Source of the DNA: an uncultured Eubacteriales bacterium
Lineage (GTDB): Bacteria; Bacillota; Clostridia; TANB77; CAG-508
DNA: 64,000 nucleotides
Assembly (NCBI GenBank): GCA_902492015.1
Contig: CABUJR010000006.1
Span: forward strand, 50,421-114,420
Reading direction: 5' to 3'
Part shown: positions 1,070 to 63,624 of the stretch, piece after piece
Layout of the letters: each line of letters begins with the position of its first letter
Position numbering within the stretch: position 1 is the first letter of the stretch
The notes under the pieces: model-generated
Database searches by the model: none
Told to the model about the DNA's origin: nothing
The model's input: the letters and a program-made list of their open reading frames with translations, nothing else
Program-made: the position numbers and the translations under genes

Positions 1070-2275
1070 ATGAAAGAATCAATAAAAAATATTTTATTTG
1101 AAGTACTAATTTTTTTAGCGATAATAGTAGTAGCTATTATATGTGTATATTTGCAAAGTCATAGTATTATGATTAATTTAGATGACAATTCTACATATAT
1201 AGAAAAAAAGGATGCCAAATTAACATCAGGAGAAAAAATAACTATAGAAAAAGAACAGGGAATTGCATGTATAATTTTAGGAATAACAATTTTATTATTT
1301 ATAGTTAATTTTGATATGATGCATAGAAATGAAAAAACTAAAGAAATTTCAAGAGAAGTGGAAAATTTAATTTCGCCTTCACTTGCAGAAGTTGTAATTG
1401 ATGGAAAAATAGAAATAAAACATTTAATAATGTCAACAATTATAGATTTAAGTCTTAGGGGAAATATAGAGATAATAAATAATGATACTATAAGACTTTT
1501 ATCAACAGGAAATTTAGAACTTTATGAATCAAAAATTATAGATTTAATATTTCAAGATAGTAATGTGGTAGCTTTTAAAGATATTAATAAAATATTTAAA
1601 AAATCTAATAAAAAAACTGTAGAATTTAGTAAGCAAGTTCAGATTATTAAAAAATTAATTGTGGAAAAATTATATAATATTAAGATTTTTTCTGCTGAGA
1701 AAACCTTAATTAATAAAGTTATAACTTCTATATCTTTGTTTTTAATAATAAATTTAATTTTAATACTTTCAGGTTTCTTAAATGCAATAGAAGCTTTAGT
1801 TACAGTTAATATAATTTTAATTGTAGCATACATATATTATTTATATAAAGGTACTTCAATGTTAGAACAAAAAGAAACAAATGCATATAAAAGTGAAAAA
1901 AGAAAATTATATATTTTAATGATATGTATAGTAGTTTCTTTAATTTTAACTATAGGAAAAATCATGATTTATAAACCACAAATGATTCTTCTTGTTTTAC
2001 TAACAGTTGGCTTAAATATAATTATTATAAAAAATAGCAAAGATGTTGTTTTAACAGATAGAGGAAAAATAGAAAAATTAAAATTATTAAGACTTAAAAA
2101 TTATATTAATGAATATAGTCTAATAAAGGATAGAGATTTAAATTCGTCTGTTGTTTGGGATAAATATTTAGCTTATGCGACAGCTTTTGAGATACCAAAC
2201 AAAGTAACAGATTCTATTTATGAATCTTGGTATGACTTAAATCTTACTTTGCAATTTATTGATAGAATTTTGTAG
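1070..2275 (+). CDS. Hypothetical polytopic membrane protein
   Basis: 401-aa ORF with several hydrophobic helices and an aggaaataaat-ATG context. No recognisable catalytic motif. Confidence 0.5.
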   Translation: MKESIKNILFEVLIFLAIIVVAIICVYLQSHSIMINLDDNSTYIEKKDAKLTSGEKITIEKEQGIACIILGITILLFIVNFDMMHRNEKTKEISREVENLISPSLAEVVIDGKIEIKHLIMSTIIDLSLRGNIEIINNDTIRLLSTGNLELYESKIIDLIFQDSNVVAFKDINKIFKKSNKKTVEFSKQVQIIKKLIVEKLYNIKIFSAEKTLINKVITSISLFLIINLILILSGFLNAIEALVTVNIILIVAYIYYLYKGTSMLEQKETNAYKSEKRKLYILMICIVVSLILTIGKIMIYKPQMILLVLLTVGLNIIIIKNSKDVVLTDRGKIEKLKLLRLKNYINEYSLIKDRDLNSSVVWDKYLAYATAFEIPNKVTDSIYESWYDLNLTLQFIDRIL

Positions 2276-4354: not shown

Positions 4355-5728
4355 ATGAAGCTAAGAACAAGGATGTACCTACGGAAAAGACTAAATGAAG
4401 TCAAACACACAACTTTAAACCCAAACGGGCCAGGTGTTGTTCGGATTCATTTGGTGCCACCGAAAGCTGGCAAAGAAGATGCACCAGCAGTAGTAATTAT
4501 TAACGGAAGGGATTTGCTGCCTATTAAACCTTCGTGGAGTTTACTTTTGGCAGAATTCATAACGCAAATAAACTACTATGCTGGAAAATCTCTTTCAGAG
4601 GATGACCTTCGCACAATAAGAGATAACACTTTTGTGCAGGTAACGAAGGTTTTCAGGAAAGTGGATCGCGACCTGTTAAGAGATGACCTGAAATCACTGA
4701 TGGACACGTTATGTAAGATTGCATACGGAGAAGAAGTGGACGAAGACATTCCATATATGTCTATCGGTGAATATGCATCCTACATGAGTGCTCCGCACAG
4801 AATTGATTTAATGATAAGCAGTATGACCAAATCTGGAAAATGGCATTGTAACCAGAGATGTGTTAACTGCTATGCAGCAGGTCAGACTGAAGCGGAAGTC
4901 AATGAACTTTCTACAGAAGAGTGGAAGAAAATCATTGACAAATGCAGAGCCGCATATATACCACAAATTACATTTACCGGTGGAGAACCAACAATGAGAA
5001 ATGACTTGGTAGAACTTATTGACTATTCTCAATGGTTTGTAACCAGGTTAAATACCAATGGTATTCTCCTCTCAAAGGAGCTTTGTAAGCAACTTTATGA
5101 GGCGAGCTTGGATAGTGTACAAATAACTCTATACTCATCTGACGAAGCCGAGCATGAGGCACTTACCGGTAGTTGCGGTACCTTTAAACACACAGTACAA
5201 GGAATAAAAAATGCCATAGAGGCAGGACTGAATGTGAGTATTAATACTCCGCTGTGTAAAGGAAACTCAGATTATGTAAAAACACTCAAGTTTTTGCATA
5301 GCTTGGGAGTAACTTATGTTTCTTGTTCTGGTATTATTTTTACTGGAAATGCGAGAAGCAAGACTGCAAAGGAAAAGCAACTGACAGAAGATGAGCTTTT
5401 CAAGATTCTTAAAGAAGCGACAGCATATTGCTGGCAAAATGATATGGAGATTGCATTTACATCTCCTGGGCAAGTTTCAGAAGAAAAACTTGAACAGCTC
5501 GATCTATCTCTTCCCACATGTGGTGCTTGCCTTAGTAATATGGCTATCGCACCAAATGGCAATGTTGTTCCATGTCAGAGCTGGTTAAATGGCAATTCTG
5601 TATTAGGAAACATGCTGTCTGATCCGTGGAAGAGAATTTGGAATTCCCCTAAAGCCTTAAGTATCAGGGAGTTTTCTGCTCGGATGGAGCATACATGCCC
5701 ATTAAAGACAGTAAAGGAGGACAAATAA
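4355..5728 (+). CDS. Radical SAM enzyme with SPASM/twitch-like C-terminal Cys-rich domain and ~160-aa N-terminal (RRE-like?) extension
   Basis: CNQRCVNCYAAGQ (CX3CX2C) at about aa 165. Later Cys clusters CKGNSDY, SCSG, CGAC...PC, HTCP. Strong RBS aaggaggaacgagt-ATG. About 43% GC against a 27% background. Confidence 0.85.
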   Translation: MKLRTRMYLRKRLNEVKHTTLNPNGPGVVRIHLVPPKAGKEDAPAVVIINGRDLLPIKPSWSLLLAEFITQINYYAGKSLSEDDLRTIRDNTFVQVTKVFRKVDRDLLRDDLKSLMDTLCKIAYGEEVDEDIPYMSIGEYASYMSAPHRIDLMISSMTKSGKWHCNQRCVNCYAAGQTEAEVNELSTEEWKKIIDKCRAAYIPQITFTGGEPTMRNDLVELIDYSQWFVTRLNTNGILLSKELCKQLYEASLDSVQITLYSSDEAEHEALTGSCGTFKHTVQGIKNAIEAGLNVSINTPLCKGNSDYVKTLKFLHSLGVTYVSCSGIIFTGNARSKTAKEKQLTEDELFKILKEATAYCWQNDMEIAFTSPGQVSEEKLEQLDLSLPTCGACLSNMAIAPNGNVVPCQSWLNGNSVLGNMLSDPWKRIWNSPKALSIREFSARMEHTCPLKTVKEDK

Positions 5729-5729
5729 T

Positions 5730-6689
5730 ATGAAAGCAAAAACAATGGTAACACGGATAATTATTGTTTTGGCTGTTATTTTCACTTTACTGCCAATAAC
5801 AGTATATGCCAAAGAACCCCTGGATGAAATCCAGGACTACACAGTAACAGTTGACCTTAGACCTGATGGAACAGCAGATATCAAGTATCATCTGGAATGG
5901 AAGGTACTTGATGACAGTTCAGAAGGCCCTTTGGAATGGGTAAAAATAGGTATTGCAAATGAGAATGTTGATGAAATTACAGCATTAACAAGCAATATAA
6001 GCAAGATCAAATATTACCCAGAGGGATCAGATGATTATGTTCGCATAGATTTTGATAGAAAATACTATGCGGGGGAAGTCATAAATTTTGATTTCTCACT
6101 TCATCAGAGTCATTTGTACGTAATGGATAAAGAAGAGCATCTGCTCAGATATTCTTTTACACCGGGCTGGTTTCCTGAAATTGAGGTAAAAAATATCACT
6201 ATCAAATGGAATAAAAATAATGTGATTAAAACCTCAGCAGAACAAGAAGATAGCAATGGATATTATGTTTGGAATGGAAGCTTAAGCTTTGATGAAAGGC
6301 TTAATGCATCTGTTTCTTATAATCTGGATGCTTATGCTGCTACTGAAGAAGGTCAGGCTCAAGAAAAGGAAGAAGATGGAATACCAACGATTTTGGTAAT
6401 AATTCTTATTGTACTAATTGTTATATTGGTAATAGTAGTTCTTGTAGCTATCTTTTCAAACGATGATGATTATGGTTCTGGTAGAGGTTATGGAGGAGGC
6501 TCTCATTATAGGAGCACATATATCCATACACATCATTCTTCTTGCGTAAGTAGCTGTGCTTGCGTGCATTGTGCATGTGCATGTGCATGCGCAGGCGGTG
6601 GAAGAGCAGGATGTAGCAAGAAAGACTTCTACGGTACTAATCTTAAGAAAGACATGATGGATAAGGTTCTAAGCGAAGAGCTGGACTAG
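5730..6689 (+). CDS. DUF2207-like single-pass membrane protein with cytoplasmic Cys/Gly-rich tail (putative rSAM substrate)
   Basis: Signal peptide, about 190-aa ectodomain (IQDYTVTVDLRPDGTADIKYHLEWKV), TM helix IPTILVIILIVLIVILVIVVLVAIF, and tail ...GGGSHYRSTYIHTHHSSCVSSCACVHCACACACAGGGRAGC. Start is 2 nt after the rSAM stop, with RBS aaggagg. Confidence 0.6.
   Translation: MKAKTMVTRIIIVLAVIFTLLPITVYAKEPLDEIQDYTVTVDLRPDGTADIKYHLEWKVLDDSSEGPLEWVKIGIANENVDEITALTSNISKIKYYPEGSDDYVRIDFDRKYYAGEVINFDFSLHQSHLYVMDKEEHLLRYSFTPGWFPEIEVKNITIKWNKNNVIKTSAEQEDSNGYYVWNGSLSFDERLNASVSYNLDAYAATEEGQAQEKEEDGIPTILVIILIVLIVILVIVVLVAIFSNDDDYGSGRGYGGGSHYRSTYIHTHHSSCVSSCACVHCACACACAGGGRAGCSKKDFYGTNLKKDMMDKVLSEELD
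6570..6593 (+). repeat. (TGYGCA)4 hexanucleotide microsatellite encoding the CACACACA tract
   Basis: tgtgca tgtgca tgtgca tgcgca, in frame as Cys-Ala repeats. Confidence 0.8.
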
Positions 6690-7851: not shown

Positions 7852-10296
7852 TTAAAATTTTCCATTTGTGTAATCTGGTCCTTCAAAACAGCTACCTTGT
7901 TTAACAGTATCAATAATTTTTTGAATTTCATCAATATTTTCATCTAAAATATCAATACGGATAGAAGTTGATAAAATATCATCATATTTTACAGATAGTG
8001 TTTTACTATTAAACATTGTTGTTATAGTTGAAGTATTATCAGGTAAAATTCTAAACTTAAATCCTAATCTATCTTTTAAATAAAAGATATTATTATTTTT
8101 GCAAAGCTGTTTACAATCTTTATAACATCTGTTAGATTCTCCAAGATAACAATAATTATTTGTCATAACAGGTATTTTTCCATAAACGATTACTTCTGAA
8201 AGTATGCAAGATTTATTTAATACATCATTTATTTCAAATTTATTTAATTCTGGTGAAACAGTATATGCAGAAAAACCTAATTCTTTTAATTTATTTATAG
8301 AATAATTGTTATAAATATTCAAAGTAAAGTTTCCAATGTTTTCTAATTCTAAATCAGATATTTTTTCTAATTGAGATAAATGAGATACAATAAATCCTTT
8401 TATAGAAAAACTTTGTTTAATTTTTTTAAAATCTATATATTTTAGTTTATTATCTTTTATAATGTTCGGAAGATATATGTAAGTATTAAACCTATTTGCA
8501 AGTGATTTAAGTAGGTTTTCATAGTTTTTATCTAAAAAATAATTTAAAGGTATGTAAAGTCTATCTATATTTGATATTTCTAAATAATTAATATCTAATT
8601 TTAATATATTTAAAAGTAGAGATATTTTCTTAGATTTAGAATTATCTAGTAGAGTAGGAGATACATATTGAAGTTCTACATTTTCTAAATTATGCTTATA
8701 TTTATTTAAAACTAATTCTTCTAAAGCATTTAAAACCTTTCTTCTTAGTTCATTAAGAGCTCCAGTTTGTACAAATAAATTTTTATCTAAATTAACAAAA
8801 AGGTTTTCAAATTCAAATTCAGTATTTCCAGTTTTGGAAATTTGCTCTATAAGCTTATCTTTTGTAAGTGGTTGTCTTAAAGCTTTTTGAGGTATAGTAG
8901 AAGTAGTTAAATTCACTTCTAAATCTTTATAAAAACCATCATCTGACCAGACTTTAAGAGAGATTGGAGTTTTTGATTTTACAGTAATTTCTCCATTTAT
9001 TTTGACTTTTTTTAAGTTTTTATCTTCTTTAAAAGAAGGAGCTATGTATTTATTTAATTTTGAATCTTCTATTTTATATATTTTAGAACCAGTATATATT
9101 TTGCCTTTCATTCTACCAATTTTTACAGTATGTCCAGCATCTAGACTTTCATAATTTTGGTTATTTATCATCAATTCAGAAATAGTATAATTTTCATCAT
9201 TAATAGAAATTTTATCTCCAATAGATAAAGAATTTTCAAGAGTTAAAGTTATGTGTCCTTTATTTTCATTTATATTAGAAATAGTTCCAACATAAATACC
9301 CATATTATTTGGCTTTTCTTTGAAAATAATATTTTTATTAGGTGAAGAACTAAAATGTCCACTAGAAAATCCTCCACGATTAAATACTTGAGTTATTTCT
9401 TCTTTATCAGATAGCCCAGTTTCATTATTTATACTTTCTAAGTTTTTATTTATTAATTGTTTTAAAGTTTCATTATCTAAATTCATATTGTTAAAAATTA
9501 AATCAATATATTTTCTATAAAATCTTGTAACAACAGCAACATAAGTTGGAGTTTTCATTCGTCCTTCTATTTTTAAAGAAGATATACCTGATTTTATAAG
9601 TTCAGGTAAAAAAGTGACTCCAAAATTATCTCTAGGACTAAGAATGTATCCTTTATTTAGAACTAATTCTTTATTATCTGCCTCTTCAATAAGTTCATAT
9701 TGCAATCTACATGGTTGTGCACAAAGTCCGCGATTACCAGAACGACCACCTATCATACTAGAAAGTAAGCATTGCCCAGAATATGAAATACAAAGAGCTC
9801 CATGAATAAAAATTTCAAGTTCTAGTTTTGTGTTTTCACGAATATACTGAATTTCTTCTAAAGAAAGTTCACGAGAAAGTACAACTCTAGAGAAACCAGC
9901 TTTCTCGAGTTGATTAACACCGTCTAAATTATGAACTGTCATTTGCGTACTAGCATGTAATGGTATTTCTGGATGATTTTTATGCAAATAGCCTGCAAGT
10001 CCTAAATCTTGAACAATAATTGCATCTACTCCAAAATTATAAGCATTTATGGCTAAGTTTACAGCCTGATTAAATTCATCATTTTTTAACAAAGTATTTA
10101 AAGCAAGATGTACTTTAACATTCCTTAATTTTGCATAACAGATTGCCTCATATAATTCATTATTATCAAAATTTTTTGCTCTAGCTCTGGCACTAAATGT
10201 AGAAGCACCTAAATAAACGGCGTCAGCTCCATTTTGTACAGCAGCTTTTAGACACTCAAAGTCTCCAACAGGAGATAGTAATTCTATTTTTTCCAT
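7852..10296 (-). CDS. Peptidase U32 family protein (collagenase-like PrtC, with C-terminal extension)
   Basis: MEKIELLSPVGDFECLKAAVQNGADAVYLG is a U32 N-terminal signature. Start placed at ATG 10296 (RBS aaagga), not at the longer ORF start 10413. Confidence 0.75.
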   Translation of the reverse strand: MEKIELLSPVGDFECLKAAVQNGADAVYLGASTFSARARAKNFDNNELYEAICYAKLRNVKVHLALNTLLKNDEFNQAVNLAINAYNFGVDAIIVQDLGLAGYLHKNHPEIPLHASTQMTVHNLDGVNQLEKAGFSRVVLSRELSLEEIQYIRENTKLELEIFIHGALCISYSGQCLLSSMIGGRSGNRGLCAQPCRLQYELIEEADNKELVLNKGYILSPRDNFGVTFLPELIKSGISSLKIEGRMKTPTYVAVVTRFYRKYIDLIFNNMNLDNETLKQLINKNLESINNETGLSDKEEITQVFNRGGFSSGHFSSSPNKNIIFKEKPNNMGIYVGTISNINENKGHITLTLENSLSIGDKISINDENYTISELMINNQNYESLDAGHTVKIGRMKGKIYTGSKIYKIEDSKLNKYIAPSFKEDKNLKKVKINGEITVKSKTPISLKVWSDDGFYKDLEVNLTTSTIPQKALRQPLTKDKLIEQISKTGNTEFEFENLFVNLDKNLFVQTGALNELRRKVLNALEELVLNKYKHNLENVELQYVSPTLLDNSKSKKISLLLNILKLDINYLEISNIDRLYIPLNYFLDKNYENLLKSLANRFNTYIYLPNIIKDNKLKYIDFKKIKQSFSIKGFIVSHLSQLEKISDLELENIGNFTLNIYNNYSINKLKELGFSAYTVSPELNKFEINDVLNKSCILSEVIVYGKIPVMTNNYCYLGESNRCYKDCKQLCKNNNIFYLKDRLGFKFRILPDNTSTITTMFNSKTLSVKYDDILSTSIRIDILDENIDEIQKIIDTVKQGSCFEGPDYTNGKF

Positions 10297-48098: not shown

Positions 48099-49949
48099 TT
48101 ACTTAACGGTATTACCTACCGAAGCATTTTTCTTATATTCTGTAAATAGTGAATCTAGCTCATCTCCCATTACTGTTTCTTGATCTAAAAGAAGTTTTGT
48201 AAGTGCTTTTGTGAGTTCCATATTTCCGTTGATAAGCTCTATCGCCTTCTTTTCAGACTCTTTAAGGATACTTGCCACTTTATTCCAGATTGCGTCAAGA
48301 GTATGTTGACCCAGATAATCGGTACTTGGTGCATCATCTCTAAATGATATAGGTCCTAACTCCTCGTCCATACCATACTGCATAACCATCCTTCGAGCTT
48401 TTTCTGTAGCAACTTCAAGATCGTTTGAAGCTCCTGTAGAGATATCTCCGATTAAGATTGATTCAGCAGCTCTACCAGCAAGCAAAACAATTAAACTTTC
48501 AGTAAATTCCTGTTTGCTGATATATTGTTTATCCTCTGTGCTTTCATGCATAGTGTATCCACCAGCAGTTCCTCTGGGAACGATTGATATTTCCTTTACA
48601 TTTGACTGCGTTGGAAGTAACTTGCCAACTATTGCGTGTCCTGATTCATGAACTGCAGTAATTTTTCTTTCTTTTTCTGAGATAATTCTTCCAGTTTTCT
48701 GAAGTCCTACTAATAATTTCTTTTGGGCTTCATCAATATCAGATTTATGAATAATCTCATGATTGTTCCTTGCAGCCATGAGAGCGGACTCATTAAGCAA
48801 ATTCTCAAGTTCTGCACCTGAATATCCCGCTGTGTTACACGCAATTCTATAGAAATCCACATCCTCGTAGAATTTCTTGTTTCTGGCATGCACGTGTAGA
48901 ATTTCCATTCTACCTTTTACATCAGGCAAATTCACAGTAACTTTTCTGTCGAATCTACCGGGCCTTACTAATGCAGGATCTAAGCTATCAAAGCGGTTGG
49001 TAGCACCAAGAATCACTATATCGGTTCTGTCCTTAAAGCCATCAAGTTCGATTAACAGCTGTTCGAGAGTTTGATTTCTCTCGTCATTGCTGTCTCCTCG
49101 TTTTGCTCCTATAGAATCAATTTCATCAATGAAAATGATACATGGAGCTTGCTTTCTGGCTTCTTTGAACAATCCTCTAATACGTTGAGCTCCAACTCCA
49201 ACATATTTTTCTACGAACTCTGAACCAGATACAGCAAGATATGCTACATCTGCTTCACCAGCCACAGCCTTTGCAAGTAATGTTTTACCAGTTCCAGGGT
49301 TTCCTGAAAGAAGTATTCCTCTAGGGATTTTTGCACCTAACTTTAAATATTTATCAGGATTTTTGATGAAGTCAACAACTTCCTCTAATTCTTTCTTTTC
49401 TTCGTCTAATGCTGCAACATCTGAGAACCGAACATCACTTTTGGTAAGTTTTTCCATAAAGTTAATGTCAGTATTTAGAACATTTGCAAAACTTAGAAAG
49501 TTAGAATTATCTGATTTTTTATTATTTCCTGTAAATTGTTTCGTTAGATATTTAAGCCCCATGATAAGAGCTGATCCCAAGTATACTGAAGCTACCAGAG
49601 TTAACAAGAAACCTAATATCAAATCACTAATGCTTGATTCTTCAGGTATTACTTCTAAATTTACAGGATTACCATAATAGATAATTTCATCCTGTATAAA
49701 ATTTAGAAAAACCTCCTCATTTGGAACTTCAGCCATTACTATTGTGTTATCAAGTAGTATTGCATTCACTAAGCTATCTCCCTCTTGTAGCTCAACAGAA
49801 GCAACTTTTTCTGATTCTATTAAGCTAATAAAGTCAGAGTATGACACGCTAACAGGCTTGGTTTTGGTTGGTGAATTTAAAAGCCGTACTCCTGCAAAGA
49901 TAAGAAGTGCGATTAAACCCATAAATGCTACAATTTTTAATTTTTTCAT
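48099..49949 (-). CDS. ftsH: ATP-dependent zinc metalloprotease FtsH
   Basis: Two TM helices, AAA Walker A GPPGTGKT, SRH, HESGH zinc motif. Confidence 0.92.
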   Translation of the reverse strand: MKKLKIVAFMGLIALLIFAGVRLLNSPTKTKPVSVSYSDFISLIESEKVASVELQEGDSLVNAILLDNTIVMAEVPNEEVFLNFIQDEIIYYGNPVNLEVIPEESSISDLILGFLLTLVASVYLGSALIMGLKYLTKQFTGNNKKSDNSNFLSFANVLNTDINFMEKLTKSDVRFSDVAALDEEKKELEEVVDFIKNPDKYLKLGAKIPRGILLSGNPGTGKTLLAKAVAGEADVAYLAVSGSEFVEKYVGVGAQRIRGLFKEARKQAPCIIFIDEIDSIGAKRGDSNDERNQTLEQLLIELDGFKDRTDIVILGATNRFDSLDPALVRPGRFDRKVTVNLPDVKGRMEILHVHARNKKFYEDVDFYRIACNTAGYSGAELENLLNESALMAARNNHEIIHKSDIDEAQKKLLVGLQKTGRIISEKERKITAVHESGHAIVGKLLPTQSNVKEISIVPRGTAGGYTMHESTEDKQYISKQEFTESLIVLLAGRAAESILIGDISTGASNDLEVATEKARRMVMQYGMDEELGPISFRDDAPSTDYLGQHTLDAIWNKVASILKESEKKAIELINGNMELTKALTKLLLDQETVMGDELDSLFTEYKKNASVGNTVK

Positions 49950-60613: not shown

Positions 60614-61714
60614 TTACAAAATTTTTTTCAAATATTCATACATAAATTGATTTAAATCTCCATCCATAACTGCTTCTACATTTCCAACTTCATAATTTGT
60701 TCTATGATCTTTTACCAAAGTATATGGACAAAAAACATAAGAACGTATTTGACTTCCCCAAGCTATGTCCTTTTGTTCTCCTTTTAATTCGTCTATTGTT
60801 TCTTTATTTTGTTTTTCTTTCAAATCTAATAATTTAGATTTTAGCATTTTCATTGCTGTTTCTTTATTCATTGTTTGAGAACGTTCAGATTGACAAGCTA
60901 CAACAATATTTGTTGGAATATGTGTTATTCTTACGGCAGAATCTGTCTTGTTTATATGTTGTCCACCTGCTCCAGAAGCTCTATAAGTATCTATTCTTAA
61001 ATCTTCAGGATTTATTTGTACTTCTAAATCATCTGTTATCTCTGGTAAAACTTCAACAGAAGCAAAAGAAGTATGTCTCCTTCCCCCACTATCAAAAGGA
61101 GATATCCTTACTAATCTATGAACTCCCATTTCCCCTTTTAAATATCCATAGGCATTATCACCAGATATTAAAGCAGTAACACTTTTTATTCCTGCCTCAT
61201 CACCTTCTAAATAATCTAATTCTTTAAGAATAAATCCATTTGATGAAGCCCATTTTCCATACATTCTATATAACATTTGCACCCAGTCCTGTGATTCAGT
61301 GCCACCAGCACCAGGATGTAATGTAATAATTGCATTATTTGAATCATATTTTCCAGAAAACAATGTTTGGATTTCTAAATCTTCTAATTTTTTTTCTATC
61401 TTTTTCGAATTTGAAATTAATTCATTTAATAATTCTTCATCTAATTCTATTTCTAATAATTTATTTATTTCAAACAAATTATTTAATTCGGAAAAAATAT
61501 CTTCAAATGTTTTTATTTTTTTTTGTAAATTTTTTATTTTAGAAAAAATTTTGGTAGAATTTTCAGAATCTTGCCAAAAGTTTTCTTCTAAGGATTTGTT
61601 TTCTAGATTTTTAAGTTCTGATTTTAATTCTTCGATTTTTATAGATTTTTTTATTTCTAAGAGTTTTTTATTTAAATTATTTAAAAATTTAAGATTTTCT
61701 TCTAGCTCTAACAC
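60614..61714 (-). CDS. prfB: Peptide chain release factor 2 (single frame, no programmed +1 frameshift)
   Basis: SPF-like and GGQ motif (RASGAGGQHINK). GTG start. Confidence 0.88.
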   Translation of the reverse strand: MLELEENLKFLNNLNKKLLEIKKSIKIEELKSELKNLENKSLEENFWQDSENSTKIFSKIKNLQKKIKTFEDIFSELNNLFEINKLLEIELDEELLNELISNSKKIEKKLEDLEIQTLFSGKYDSNNAIITLHPGAGGTESQDWVQMLYRMYGKWASSNGFILKELDYLEGDEAGIKSVTALISGDNAYGYLKGEMGVHRLVRISPFDSGGRRHTSFASVEVLPEITDDLEVQINPEDLRIDTYRASGAGGQHINKTDSAVRITHIPTNIVVACQSERSQTMNKETAMKMLKSKLLDLKEKQNKETIDELKGEQKDIAWGSQIRSYVFCPYTLVKDHRTNYEVGNVEAVMDGDLNQFMYEYLKKIL

Positions 61715-61840
61715 TTTAAAAATTATCCTTTCAAAAAATTACTAACATATTATATCATACTGCATAAATGAAAACAAGAATAATAAAGTCAATAGATATA
61801 GTATGATTTTGGACAAAAAAACATATCATTGCATGGAAAA

Positions 61841-61868
61841 GCACCTGCAAGACAAGTCTCACAGGTGC
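61841..61868 (-). terminator. GC-rich hairpin (gcacctg...caggtgc) downstream of 61890-62630 gene
   Basis: 7-bp GC-rich stem, atypical for this genome; short U-run on the minus strand. Confidence 0.45.
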
Positions 61869-61889
61869 ATAGTAACTCTAGAGTTAGAG

Positions 61890-62630
61890 TTAGATTTCCA
61901 TCAATCTAATCATTTCCGATTTTTTTGATGGTTCAATTTTGGCAATCTTAAATACATTAGGTGTGATCCATTCCTTTGCAGGGGAGCTCCCTTGTATTAA
62001 TTCACCAAAGTCGTCTTGCTGCTCGCTCCAGGTCTCCTTGATTTCATCCGGGACAATAAACAGAAACTCTGGCTTGAGTAAAACGTTCCCTCTCACCAGG
62101 TCAGCTTCTTTTAGCTCATTCCAAAGCTCATCAAGCTTTCTTTCTGTTTCTTTCAGTTTCTCCATGTCTATAGGATGTATCCCCATATAGCGGATATAAT
62201 CTTGGCTACGAAATTTGTAATTCAGTTCTATGCATTCGTAAATCTTATCAGAGCACATAATTGCTTTCGTAGCAGTTTCTTTTGATTCTACGTAATCGGA
62301 AGACAACTGTAAAATGAAATTTTCATTTTTCCATTTGGTTTTTACTTCTCCCAAAAATGGAAAAGTTCCTAGTATGGGGATGTCGTCTCCGCCGCTATAG
62401 AAATGGGGCTCCATTTCGTTATAAGATATTTCCAGCAACGTGTGGGAACTTGAATCTAGTGTTGATATACATTCGCCACAACAAAATGCAATTGGAAAAA
62501 TTTCAATCTCTCCTTTTTTATTTACATGGACATTCCGAATAAATGTGATCGGAGTTACTTTGTAGCTGTAGCATTTTTCCATAATTTTCTCCTCCTTGGG
62601 AATAAATGTTTTTATGTTAACTCTAAACAT
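61890..62630 (-). CDS. Hypothetical cytoplasmic protein in GC-elevated islet
   Basis: 246-aa ORF at about 40% GC against a 27% background. No recognisable motifs; FCCGEC Cys cluster. Confidence 0.5.
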   Translation of the reverse strand: MFRVNIKTFIPKEEKIMEKCYSYKVTPITFIRNVHVNKKGEIEIFPIAFCCGECISTLDSSSHTLLEISYNEMEPHFYSGGDDIPILGTFPFLGEVKTKWKNENFILQLSSDYVESKETATKAIMCSDKIYECIELNYKFRSQDYIRYMGIHPIDMEKLKETERKLDELWNELKEADLVRGNVLLKPEFLFIVPDEIKETWSEQQDDFGELIQGSSPAKEWITPNVFKIAKIEPSKKSEMIRLMEI

Positions 62631-62699
62631 TATAACATTTTTTTACATATTTTTCAAGTTACAAGGATTTTCCATTTATTATTGTTTAATATTTCTTTT

Positions 62700-62876
62700 T
62701 TAGCTTGCTCCACTTAAAGAAATTATAAATAGGAAAGGCAATGATAATATTAAGATACATAAAACAACAGATAATGTTATTATTAATAAAATAAATATTA
62801 TTCCAGATATTTTAAACTTTTTATGTTTTTTAAGCCTAGTTATATCTTCTTCTAATTCTTTTTCCCATTTATCCAT
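62700..62876 (-). CDS. Unannotated small membrane protein (58 aa, MDKWEKELEEDITRLKKHKKFKISGIIFILLIITLSVVLCILILSLPFLFIISLSGAS)
   Basis: ATG with aaagga 11 nt upstream. One or two TM helices. Below the ORF-track cutoff. Confidence 0.4.
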   Translation of the reverse strand: MDKWEKELEEDITRLKKHKKFKISGIIFILLIITLSVVLCILILSLPFLFIISLSGAS

Positions 62877-62922: not shown

Positions 62923-63624
62923 TTATTCCATGTTTTCTGTAATTTGATTAGCAGTTAATTGAAATTGATTTTTTGAGTTTAATAAATTGTCATTATATTC
63001 TACTAAATTTTCTGTCCTATTATGTAAAATATATATAATTAGACTAAATGCAATTATTGTTACTAACATGCTTATTATTATCATATTTTTTTTATGTTTA
63101 ATCTTATTGTTTTCTATATTTACAGTATTTAAATATCCTATAAAAATAAGTATTAAACTTATTATTAAAAATTTTATAATATTTATGATTCTTTTGTATA
63201 TATTGGCATTACTCATTATATTTCCTAATGTAGAGTAACCATCATCAAATATATGTATTCTTATAATGCATATATAATTATTATCATCATATTCTTTCTT
63301 ACCTTTAAGTGTCATCTCTGGTGAATCAAAATCTTGCATATACTCTAATTTATTTTTTTCATATTCTTCTTTAGATATTTTAAATATTAATTCTCTATTC
63401 TTACCATGGCTAGACAAATCAGAAAAGCTGTTAGCACTTATTAATTCCAAACTATTAGTATATGTCTTATATAATCCTAGCCAATTTATAATTTGTTCCT
63501 TCATGTTTTCAGAAATAAATTTAAGATTATTTTGAGAATACCAAAGATCTAATCTATAATCAACAAATAAAACAATTATAATGCTAATAATAGCAATAAT
63601 ATTGGCAACATTAATTTTTTTCAT
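62923..63624 (-). CDS. Hypothetical membrane protein
   Basis: N- and C-terminal TM helices. No domains recognised. Confidence 0.45.
   Translation of the reverse strand: MKKINVANIIAIISIIIVLFVDYRLDLWYSQNNLKFISENMKEQIINWLGLYKTYTNSLELISANSFSDLSSHGKNRELIFKISKEEYEKNKLEYMQDFDSPEMTLKGKKEYDDNNYICIIRIHIFDDGYSTLGNIMSNANIYKRIINIIKFLIISLILIFIGYLNTVNIENNKIKHKKNMIIISMLVTIIAFSLIIYILHNRTENLVEYNDNLLNSKNQFQLTANQITENME

Follow-up and report, generated by a model that had tools for sequence, protein, structure and literature searches.

The orphan gene and its cassette

The window analyzed in this work, i.e., the whole 64-kb stretch of contig CABUJR010000006.1 from an uncultured Eubacteriales bacterium, has a GC content of 25.6% and harbors, between prfB and two small membrane-protein genes, a GC-elevated islet consisting of a single orphan gene. 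The only open reading frame (ORF) of this interval extends over positions 61890-62630 of the minus strand and had been assigned a 246-aa product in the original prediction; however, the ATG at 62630 falls within the -10 box, ahead of the transcription start predicted for the gene, and therefore the protein, hereafter P0001, should consist of 230 aa. Translation likely begins at the ATG at 62582; a length of 230 aa is also given by the public gene calls and supported by the N-termini of the homologues. The gene possesses a sigma-A type promoter and an intrinsic terminator of its own (Table 1), which makes it a complete monocistronic cassette. The islet would represent one complete accessory gene, predicted to be independently expressed and equipped with a strong vegetative promoter, an equally strong ribosome-binding site, and a terminator. 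The leader of this copy exhibits no significant secondary structure (z = 0.23) and matches no Rfam family above threshold.

The coding sequence (CDS) is indeed GC-elevated, even though its GC content is 0.375 (0.43, 0.31, and 0.39 at the first, second, and third codon positions, respectively) and not about 40%. The GC-rich terminator hairpin is real, but its stem comprises 12 bp rather than seven, and its difference from the host terminators is one of degree: it has more G-C pairs (six vs. three to four) and a folding energy of -18.9 kcal/mol, but the host terminators of the window are long and strong hairpins as well (-13.5 to -16.9 kcal/mol).

The single-gene islet itself is fully borne out by the base composition. 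The GC content at third codon positions (GC3) of the orphan gene, 0.389, is the highest among the 47 non-overlapping ORFs of the window that reach 100 aa or more (median 0.107, interquartile range 0.097-0.124). It is followed by a gene encoding a radical S-adenosylmethionine (rSAM)/SPASM protein (0.356), by the partner of this gene (0.281), and by an FtsH paralogue (0.259), the next value being 0.156; prfB, wzz, cpsD, and the membrane genes range between 0.09 and 0.15. In 100-nt windows, GC climbs from about 0.14-0.27 to 0.34-0.48 inside the islet (roughly 61800 to 62550), while the promoter and the leader of the gene are AT-rich and host-like. Concerning codon usage, the relative synonymous codon usage (RSCU) of the orphan gene correlates with that of host genes at 0.48-0.61, host genes among themselves reaching 0.82-0.95, and the shift is common in direction to all the islets, with CTG, CCG, CGG, and CAG over-used relative to the host.

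Table 1. Location of the features discussed in the text, given as positions in the window or in the locus designated by its L number
Feature	Sequence	Position	Strand	Remarks
CDS of P0001, stop codon included	window	61890..62582	-	230-aa soluble acidic protein; GC 37.5%, GC3 0.39
Sigma-A type promoter	window	62629..62657	-	TTGAAA, 17-nt spacer, TGT-TATAAT (extended -10); score 11/12, TG present
Stretch from -10 box to ATG	window	62583..62628	-	46 nt, mostly 5' leader; read from sequence
Shine-Dalgarno AAGGAGGAG	window	62589-62597	-	6 nt upstream of ATG 62582
Intrinsic terminator	window	61837..61868	-	12-bp stem (6 G-C pairs), 4-nt loop, TTTT; hairpin 61868..61841
GC-elevated segment (terminator and coding region)	window	~61800..62560	no strand	100-nt GC profile
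prfB	window	60614-61714	-	directly downstream neighbor of the orphan gene
Two small membrane-protein genes	window	62700-62876 and 62923-63624	- (62923-63624)	upstream side of the orphan gene; the second encodes 233 aa
rSAM/SPASM gene and 319-aa partner	window	4355-6689	+	slot after tyrS
FtsH paralogue	window	48099-49949	-	GC 36.5%, GC3 0.26
rSAM pair in other species	L098, L100, L102	8001-10326, 8001-10315, 8001-10342
WXG100-domain protein	L094	512-1123		203 aa
tCC(C)TATAa leader motif	L091, L094	~9965-9975, ~1372-1380		also in L095, L096, L097
F420-ligase-like gene upstream of prfB	L012, L013, L023	4169-5350, 4298-5458, 883-2079		GC3 0.33-0.51
235-aa and ~1570-aa gene pair	L024, L025, L033	348-5864, 419-5889, 355-5855		weak protein-kinase-like match
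432-aa protein gene	L014	4564-5862		RNA-polymerase alpha CTD-like segment
ORFs just upstream of prfB	L056, L058, L060	5299-5775, 5251-5736, 5334-5750	-	apparent GC3 0.5-0.6
246-aa ORF	L071	428-1168		GC3 0.70
396-aa gene	L001	2535-3725		contains the segment paralogous to the 233-aa membrane protein

A rare protein family at three genomic sites

Relatives of P0001 were sought among about 15 billion public proteins in total. A word-indexed search of 5.8 billion clusters retrieved P0001 itself only; an exhaustive HMMER scan of 1.84 billion representatives disclosed four relatives (30-41% identity), to which a profile search added one more, and hence the family includes six proteins (214-267 aa). 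Their alignment revealed the conserved motifs PHF[FY]S..D and [YF]F[LM]GE...W and an invariant WITPN, and the invariant residues are mostly aromatic or hydrophobic. The cysteine cluster FCCGEC, previously singled out as a feature of the product, is not one of the family: no cysteine falls in an invariant column, and the segment faces gaps or G, D, or Y in the relatives. P0001 is hydrophilic and, as had been stated, acidic (isoelectric point 4.9), but its acidity is concentrated in residues 139-200 and not at the extreme C-terminus. It contains no transmembrane segment (maximum KD19 1.17), no effector motif of the nuclease, NTPase, TIR, Sir2, or a similar type, and no recognizable catalytic motif.

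The comparison with the available collections did not assign the protein to any described group. P0001 retrieves nothing from Pfam (E <= 1), NCBIfam, or PADLOC, and none of the six members retrieves a PADLOC-DB 2.0 model at E <= 1 or an NCBIfam family. Searched against Pfam, the other members give only scattered single weak matches, none of them to an immunity family; the weak matches to PHROGs are likewise scattered, fall in the helical region, and concern one member each, without a consistent family, and the sequence profile search of the PDB yielded nothing below E = 0.2. The predicted architecture starts with a beta-rich N-terminal part, continues with a long antiparallel helical hairpin, which is the sole recognizable element of the structure models, and ends with a small alpha/beta C-terminal part embedding WITPN.

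Two of the relatives, P0005 and P0006, are syntenic orthologues from different species (73% nucleotide identity, flanks included) that exhibit a ratio of nonsynonymous to synonymous substitutions (dN/dS) of 0.22 at a dS of about 1.07, as expected of a functional protein that has long resided at one locus, with its GC3 still raised. Judging from these sequences, P0001 is a representative of a previously undescribed and extremely rare family, and its gene is a real one under purifying selection. New, ultra-rare, and endowed with a conserved expression cassette, the family lends itself well to structural and functional studies of an uncultured gut lineage.

All six members lie on contigs of AT-rich Clostridia, at three unrelated genomic sites. 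Apart from the prfB site of the window, P0002 is flanked by DUF2085 and small genes on one side and by a FAD-dependent oxidoreductase on the other, and P0005 lies next to bofA and, on its other side, to a WXG100-domain protein; these contexts have no conserved partner gene in common. The cassette is, instead, shared by the whole family. In six of six members, a -35 box, a 17-nt spacer, and a TGnTAtAAT element are found 46-65 nt before the ATG, a strong Shine-Dalgarno is present in each of them, and every homologue is followed by a G+C-rich hairpin and a T-run (-13.4 to -22.5 kcal/mol). The same holds true for composition: the genes have a GC content of 33-37.5% and a GC3 of 0.27-0.39, in flanks of 20-27% GC whose genes have a GC3 of 0.05-0.18. 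Thus, all five relatives are themselves GC-elevated islets in AT-rich contigs, and no donor with a native composition of this kind emerges among them. Since GC-richness is common to the whole family, it is no proof of a recent import.

A few additional observations concern the homologous loci. A tCC(C)TATAa motif occurs in the leaders of five of the six members, 20-30 nt upstream of the Shine-Dalgarno, the window copy retaining ttCCCaa only; the five leaders that were folded gave z-scores of -0.5 to +0.7, indicating no structure, and no Rfam family above threshold. The WXG100-domain protein, encoded 278 nt upstream of P0005 by a gene with a host-like GC3 (0.06 vs. 0.31 of P0005), has an N-terminal WXG100 domain (35.8 bits vs. 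a Pfam cut-off of 27.3) and a helical C-terminal half, and it is possible that it is a type VII secretion substrate. Lastly, P0003 (locus L096) and P0005 (locus L094), which are 34% identical, come from separate contigs of one metagenome sample (SRR14721876), where they represent either two host species or two paralogues of one genome.

Distribution, composition, and origin of the islet

P0001 is 100% identical on all the contigs carrying its gene, and the gene order is always tm233-tm58-gene-prfB. A survey of presence and absence across strains, advised in the original prediction, disclosed no variation: when contigs were anchored on the identical prfB, which is an unbiased anchor, nine of nine possessed the gene. 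However, the sampled strains are at least 99.8% identical, and the power of this test is therefore low; the gene holds one single-nucleotide polymorphism (SNP), which is synonymous.

The analysis was extended to the 80 nearest species-level genomes (prfB identity 65-85%), i.e., metagenome-assembled genomes labelled Clostridia, Clostridium sp. CAG:245/508/567, or Candidatus Scatovivens. None of the 80 has the gene beside prfB, and its two membrane-protein neighbors are likewise absent there. Taking into account also the paucity of relatives among the public proteins, the homologues are thus not core genes of related species with a similar GC content, and to this extent the idea of an atypical islet stands. 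The block prfB-wzz-cpsD-cpsB-aspartokinase downstream is kept in many of the closest relatives, whereas the upstream side is not, and the sequences found there are mutually unrelated. Since the alignments of the nearest relatives show no homology beyond the prfB start codon, no junction can be defined, and since the whole upstream side is non-syntenic, the relatives offer no clean empty site. One locus (L038) has MatE near prfB, as in this species, with a different gene in between.

The position upstream of prfB deserves some attention. Among the loci of 73 AT-rich relatives (median GC3 <= 0.2), 27 of 628 ORFs were GC3 outliers at a threshold of 120 aa; at a threshold of 100 aa, the ORF directly upstream of prfB was an outlier in 11/72 loci, compared with 19/608 of the other ORFs (odds ratio 5.6, p ~1e-4), and some opposite-strand ORFs within the 11 may be artefacts. 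Convincing examples are an F420-ligase-like gene, a pair of genes encoding proteins of 235 and about 1570 aa, and the gene of a 432-aa protein (Table 1); those of loci L012, L013, and L033 are outliers of the 120-aa scan that the 11/72 count did not treat as lying immediately upstream. It appears that this position is a slot repeatedly holding compositionally atypical genes in this clade, and it is worth regarding as a candidate integration or recombination hot spot.

Some observations on the same surroundings are reported here in their own right. Three loci (L056, L058, and L060) display mutually similar minus-strand ORFs just upstream of prfB, on the opposite strand to it, that may be the shadows of a conserved GC-rich element, and no Rfam family matches them. 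The 246-aa ORF of locus L071 lies near the edge of an otherwise AT-rich contig, whose end may be mis-binned or chimeric. The 233-aa membrane protein of the window has a paralogous segment (65% amino acid and 80% nucleotide identity) within a 396-aa gene located about 6 kb further along the same contig. As for prfB, many bacterial prfB genes carry a programmed +1 frameshift; the one of the window is an uninterrupted ORF of 366 codons with a GTG start, as in most of the nearest relatives inspected, and, being a single ORF, it appears to be devoid of such a frameshift.

The original prediction had proposed that the orphan gene and the rSAM cassette, 55 kb apart in the window, share a common foreign donor. 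This idea is not supported by the analysis of the rSAM pair, which served as a control. For the rSAM protein, more than 6600 close homologues were found, and the 319-aa partner matches the DUF2207 N-terminal domain below threshold only (22.6 bits vs. a cut-off of 24.4). The order tyrS-rSAM-partner followed by a gene of about 250 aa is found in three other species (rSAM identity 67-77%, tyrS 87-92%), so that the pair is present in at least four species; in the other three, GC3 is 0.25-0.38 for rSAM and 0.20-0.38 for the partner, the neighbors having 0.07-0.14. At conserved residues, 46-59% of the codons differ, and the G/C-ending positions are shared little above independence. A two-state model of decay to the host composition would require for this pair an ancestral GC3 of 0.5 to more than 1, inconsistent between species pairs; the same model applied to the third positions of P0005 and P0006 fits an ancestral GC3 of about 0.49.

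Being syntenic across the clade and GC3-rich despite a complete synonymous turnover, the rSAM pair is not a recent import; either some force sustains its high GC3, or this is repeatedly reset. It follows that GC elevation is not a reliable clock of horizontal gene transfer in this clade, that GC-rich patches can be long-lived and vertically inherited in very AT-rich genomes, and that calls of "recent foreign DNA" or of a "common donor" based on composition are unsafe in such genomes. A foreign origin of the orphan gene is possible, but composition can neither date the import nor name the donor. The raw RSCU does not discriminate either, since the orphan gene correlates with the rSAM genes (0.57-0.70) scarcely better than it does with host genes. 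A comparison of log-ratios to host codon usage, yielding r = 0.89 with the rSAM pair, was not counted, because both terms share near-zero host denominators. As for linkage, looked for within the fetched flanks, no rSAM/DUF2207 pair was found beside P0002 or P0005, and no member of the orphan family lies within 8 kb on either side of the rSAM gene in loci L098-L102.

A remaining question concerns the origin of the islet and the role of its product. We consider that it is a horizontally spread one-gene accessory cassette encoding a non-enzymatic binding protein, and we would assign to this explanation a probability of roughly 0.5. According to it, AT-rich Clostridia would pass the family on horizontally in the form of a one-gene cassette; this copy would have entered the lineage after its split from the nearest sampled relatives, with a codon usage not yet relaxed to that of the host; and the product would most likely need no partner and serve, instead of as an enzyme, as a protein of the binding or inhibitor type, with a protective or immunity-like role. 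This scenario is supported by the recurrence, at non-syntenic sites, of one cassette layout and of a common excess of G/C-ending codons across members, and the orphan gene has probably been acquired. The last step is the weakest one: the binding-type reading derives from the aromatic and hydrophobic nature of the invariant residues, from the lack of a catalytic motif and of a known fold, and from that of a conserved partner gene.

Several findings weigh against this explanation. The functional guess rests on an absence of evidence, and the structure models are of limited quality, with a pLDDT (predicted local distance difference test) of 58 for P0001, which is poor, and of 73 for P0002, confident in the C-terminal half only. 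As the rSAM control demonstrates, vertical inheritance does not prevent a gene of this clade from retaining a high GC3, and composition alone does not prove a transfer. No sign of mobility was detected: the 64-kb window contains no tRNA, the neighboring genes include no integrase or transposase Pfam, and the repeats revealed by a repeat finder at the borders do not exceed 9-15 nt and are of the chance type. Translated searches (tblastn) of phage and plasmid collections gave no match, scans of viral contigs and of JGI metagenome contigs with profile-derived patterns disclosed no copy, and no lineage with a native GC content of 35-40% carries the family, though Firmicutes of this composition are far more deeply sampled. 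Finally, none of the sampled strains has an empty site. A further candidate, an octamer (TAACTCTA) noticed by eye at both ends and suggestive of a target-site duplication or terminal repeat, was discarded, as the repeat finder did not extend it.

It is also possible, even if we regard it as the less convincing solution, that the GC elevation is intrinsic and actively maintained, either by selection for G/C-ending codons that are rare in the host (e.g., for the tuning of translation) or by GC-biased gene conversion in an often recombining gene; the family might then be old in AT-rich Clostridia and patchy by loss or rearrangement. This idea is in agreement with the finding that six proteins only 30-35% identical to each other all have genes with a raised GC3 in AT-rich hosts, none of them being found in a host of matching GC content, that P0005 and P0006 are both still raised at a dS of about 1, and that the rSAM pair keeps a GC3 of 0.20-0.38 at a syntenic locus in four species in spite of codon turnover. 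It also fits the positive link between recombination and gene GC content described in bacteria by Lassalle et al. 2015 (PMC4450053). On the other hand, three lineages hold the gene non-syntenically and none of the 80 related species has it beside prfB; the composition of P0005 and P0006 is explained equally well by the decay mentioned above; and a single synonymous SNP is too little within-species polymorphism to reveal a fixation bias.

Along this line, we might tentatively speculate that GC3 stays on a plateau of about 0.25-0.5 through complete synonymous turnover in a small set of genes, among which are those of the orphan family, the rSAM/SPASM pair, the FtsH paralogue, and, in sister species, the F420-ligase-like gene upstream of prfB, compared with about 0.1 in the rest of the genome, and that the orphan protein founds a new fold or family that always travels as a ready-to-express one-gene cassette. 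If true, such a plateau implies a gene-specific force, namely GC-biased gene conversion in genes that are hot for recombination or a selection of host-rare codons that serves to control expression. The GC-elevated gene mentioned here as an FtsH paralogue codes for a full FtsH (FtsH_ext, AAA, and Peptidase_M41); the scan of JGI metagenome contigs was not informative, giving generic FtsH only, and since these best matches are 37-52% identical, it would represent a divergent paralogue or xenologue.

Two further explanations concern the function of P0001. It is unlikely, in our opinion, that it is an orphan immunity protein directed against a secreted polymorphic toxin, e.g., of the type VII or LXG type, and kept without the toxin: being small, soluble, non-enzymatic in appearance, rare, patchy, and fast-evolving, it would suit this role, and P0005 does lie downstream of the WXG100-domain gene, but that gene is host-like in composition, whereas P0005 has its own promoter; no toxin-like neighbor exists in the window, where the upstream genes encode the two small membrane proteins, nor at locus L091; and no member matches Imm, SUKH, or similar Pfam immunity families. 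We consider it quite improbable that P0001 is a standalone anti-phage defence or abortive-infection protein. The accessory, patchy, and monocistronic nature of the gene, its constitutive-type promoter, and its location in a variable slot where relatives hold other atypical genes, such as the 235-aa and ~1570-aa pair with a weak kinase-like domain, would be in agreement with this role; however, no PADLOC model recognizes any member, P0001 has neither effector motifs nor a transmembrane segment, and the gene occurs in every sampled strain instead of varying among strains. Lastly, an assembly chimera, a contamination, or an ORF arisen by chance within a non-coding GC-rich element, in favor of which only the atypical composition could be invoked, is refuted by the identical junctions on at least 24 contigs from independent ENA and Logan samples, by the family motifs conserved at 30-35% identity, and by the dN/dS of 0.22, and no Rfam match above threshold was found.

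Comparison with known systems

The proposed cassette can be compared with different known systems. P0001 resembles the immunity proteins of polymorphic toxins (type VII secretion and LXG, or contact-dependent inhibition) in that it is small and soluble, lacks an enzymatic motif, diverges rapidly, and has a patchy distribution, and one of its homologues adjoins a WXG100-domain protein; unlike them, it matches no described immunity family, and no toxin is adjacent to it in two of the three contexts. The orphan gene shares with the rSAM/SPASM and DUF2207-like pair the over-use of CTG, CCG, CGG, and CAG, the GC3 elevation across species, and the promoter type (TTGAAA-17-TG-TATAAT); nevertheless, the rSAM pair is clade-wide, syntenic by tyrS, and rich in homologues, whereas the orphan gene has five relatives and no conserved position.

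Genomic islets and ORFans undergoing amelioration are the subject of the model of Lawrence and Ochman. The orphan gene differs from such horizontally acquired islets in the lack of a tRNA, an integrase, flanking repeats, and strain-level variation in presence, as well as in the lack of an identifiable donor and in the equal GC elevation of six distant members and of orthologues at a dS of about 1; it is similar to them in its atypical codon usage, in its absence from close relatives, and in its patchy phyletic distribution. Prophage morons, described by Hendrix and colleagues, lie between conserved genes as self-sufficient units of promoter, gene, and terminator with a deviant base composition. 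The orphan gene is not located in a prophage, its neighbors being prfB, capsule-type genes, a MatE transporter, and small membrane proteins, and phage records, viral contigs, and plasmids contain nothing that matches it; like a moron, however, it is provided with its own promoter and intrinsic terminator, differs in composition from both its neighbors, and sits between unrelated genes, in a layout that recurs in every homologue.

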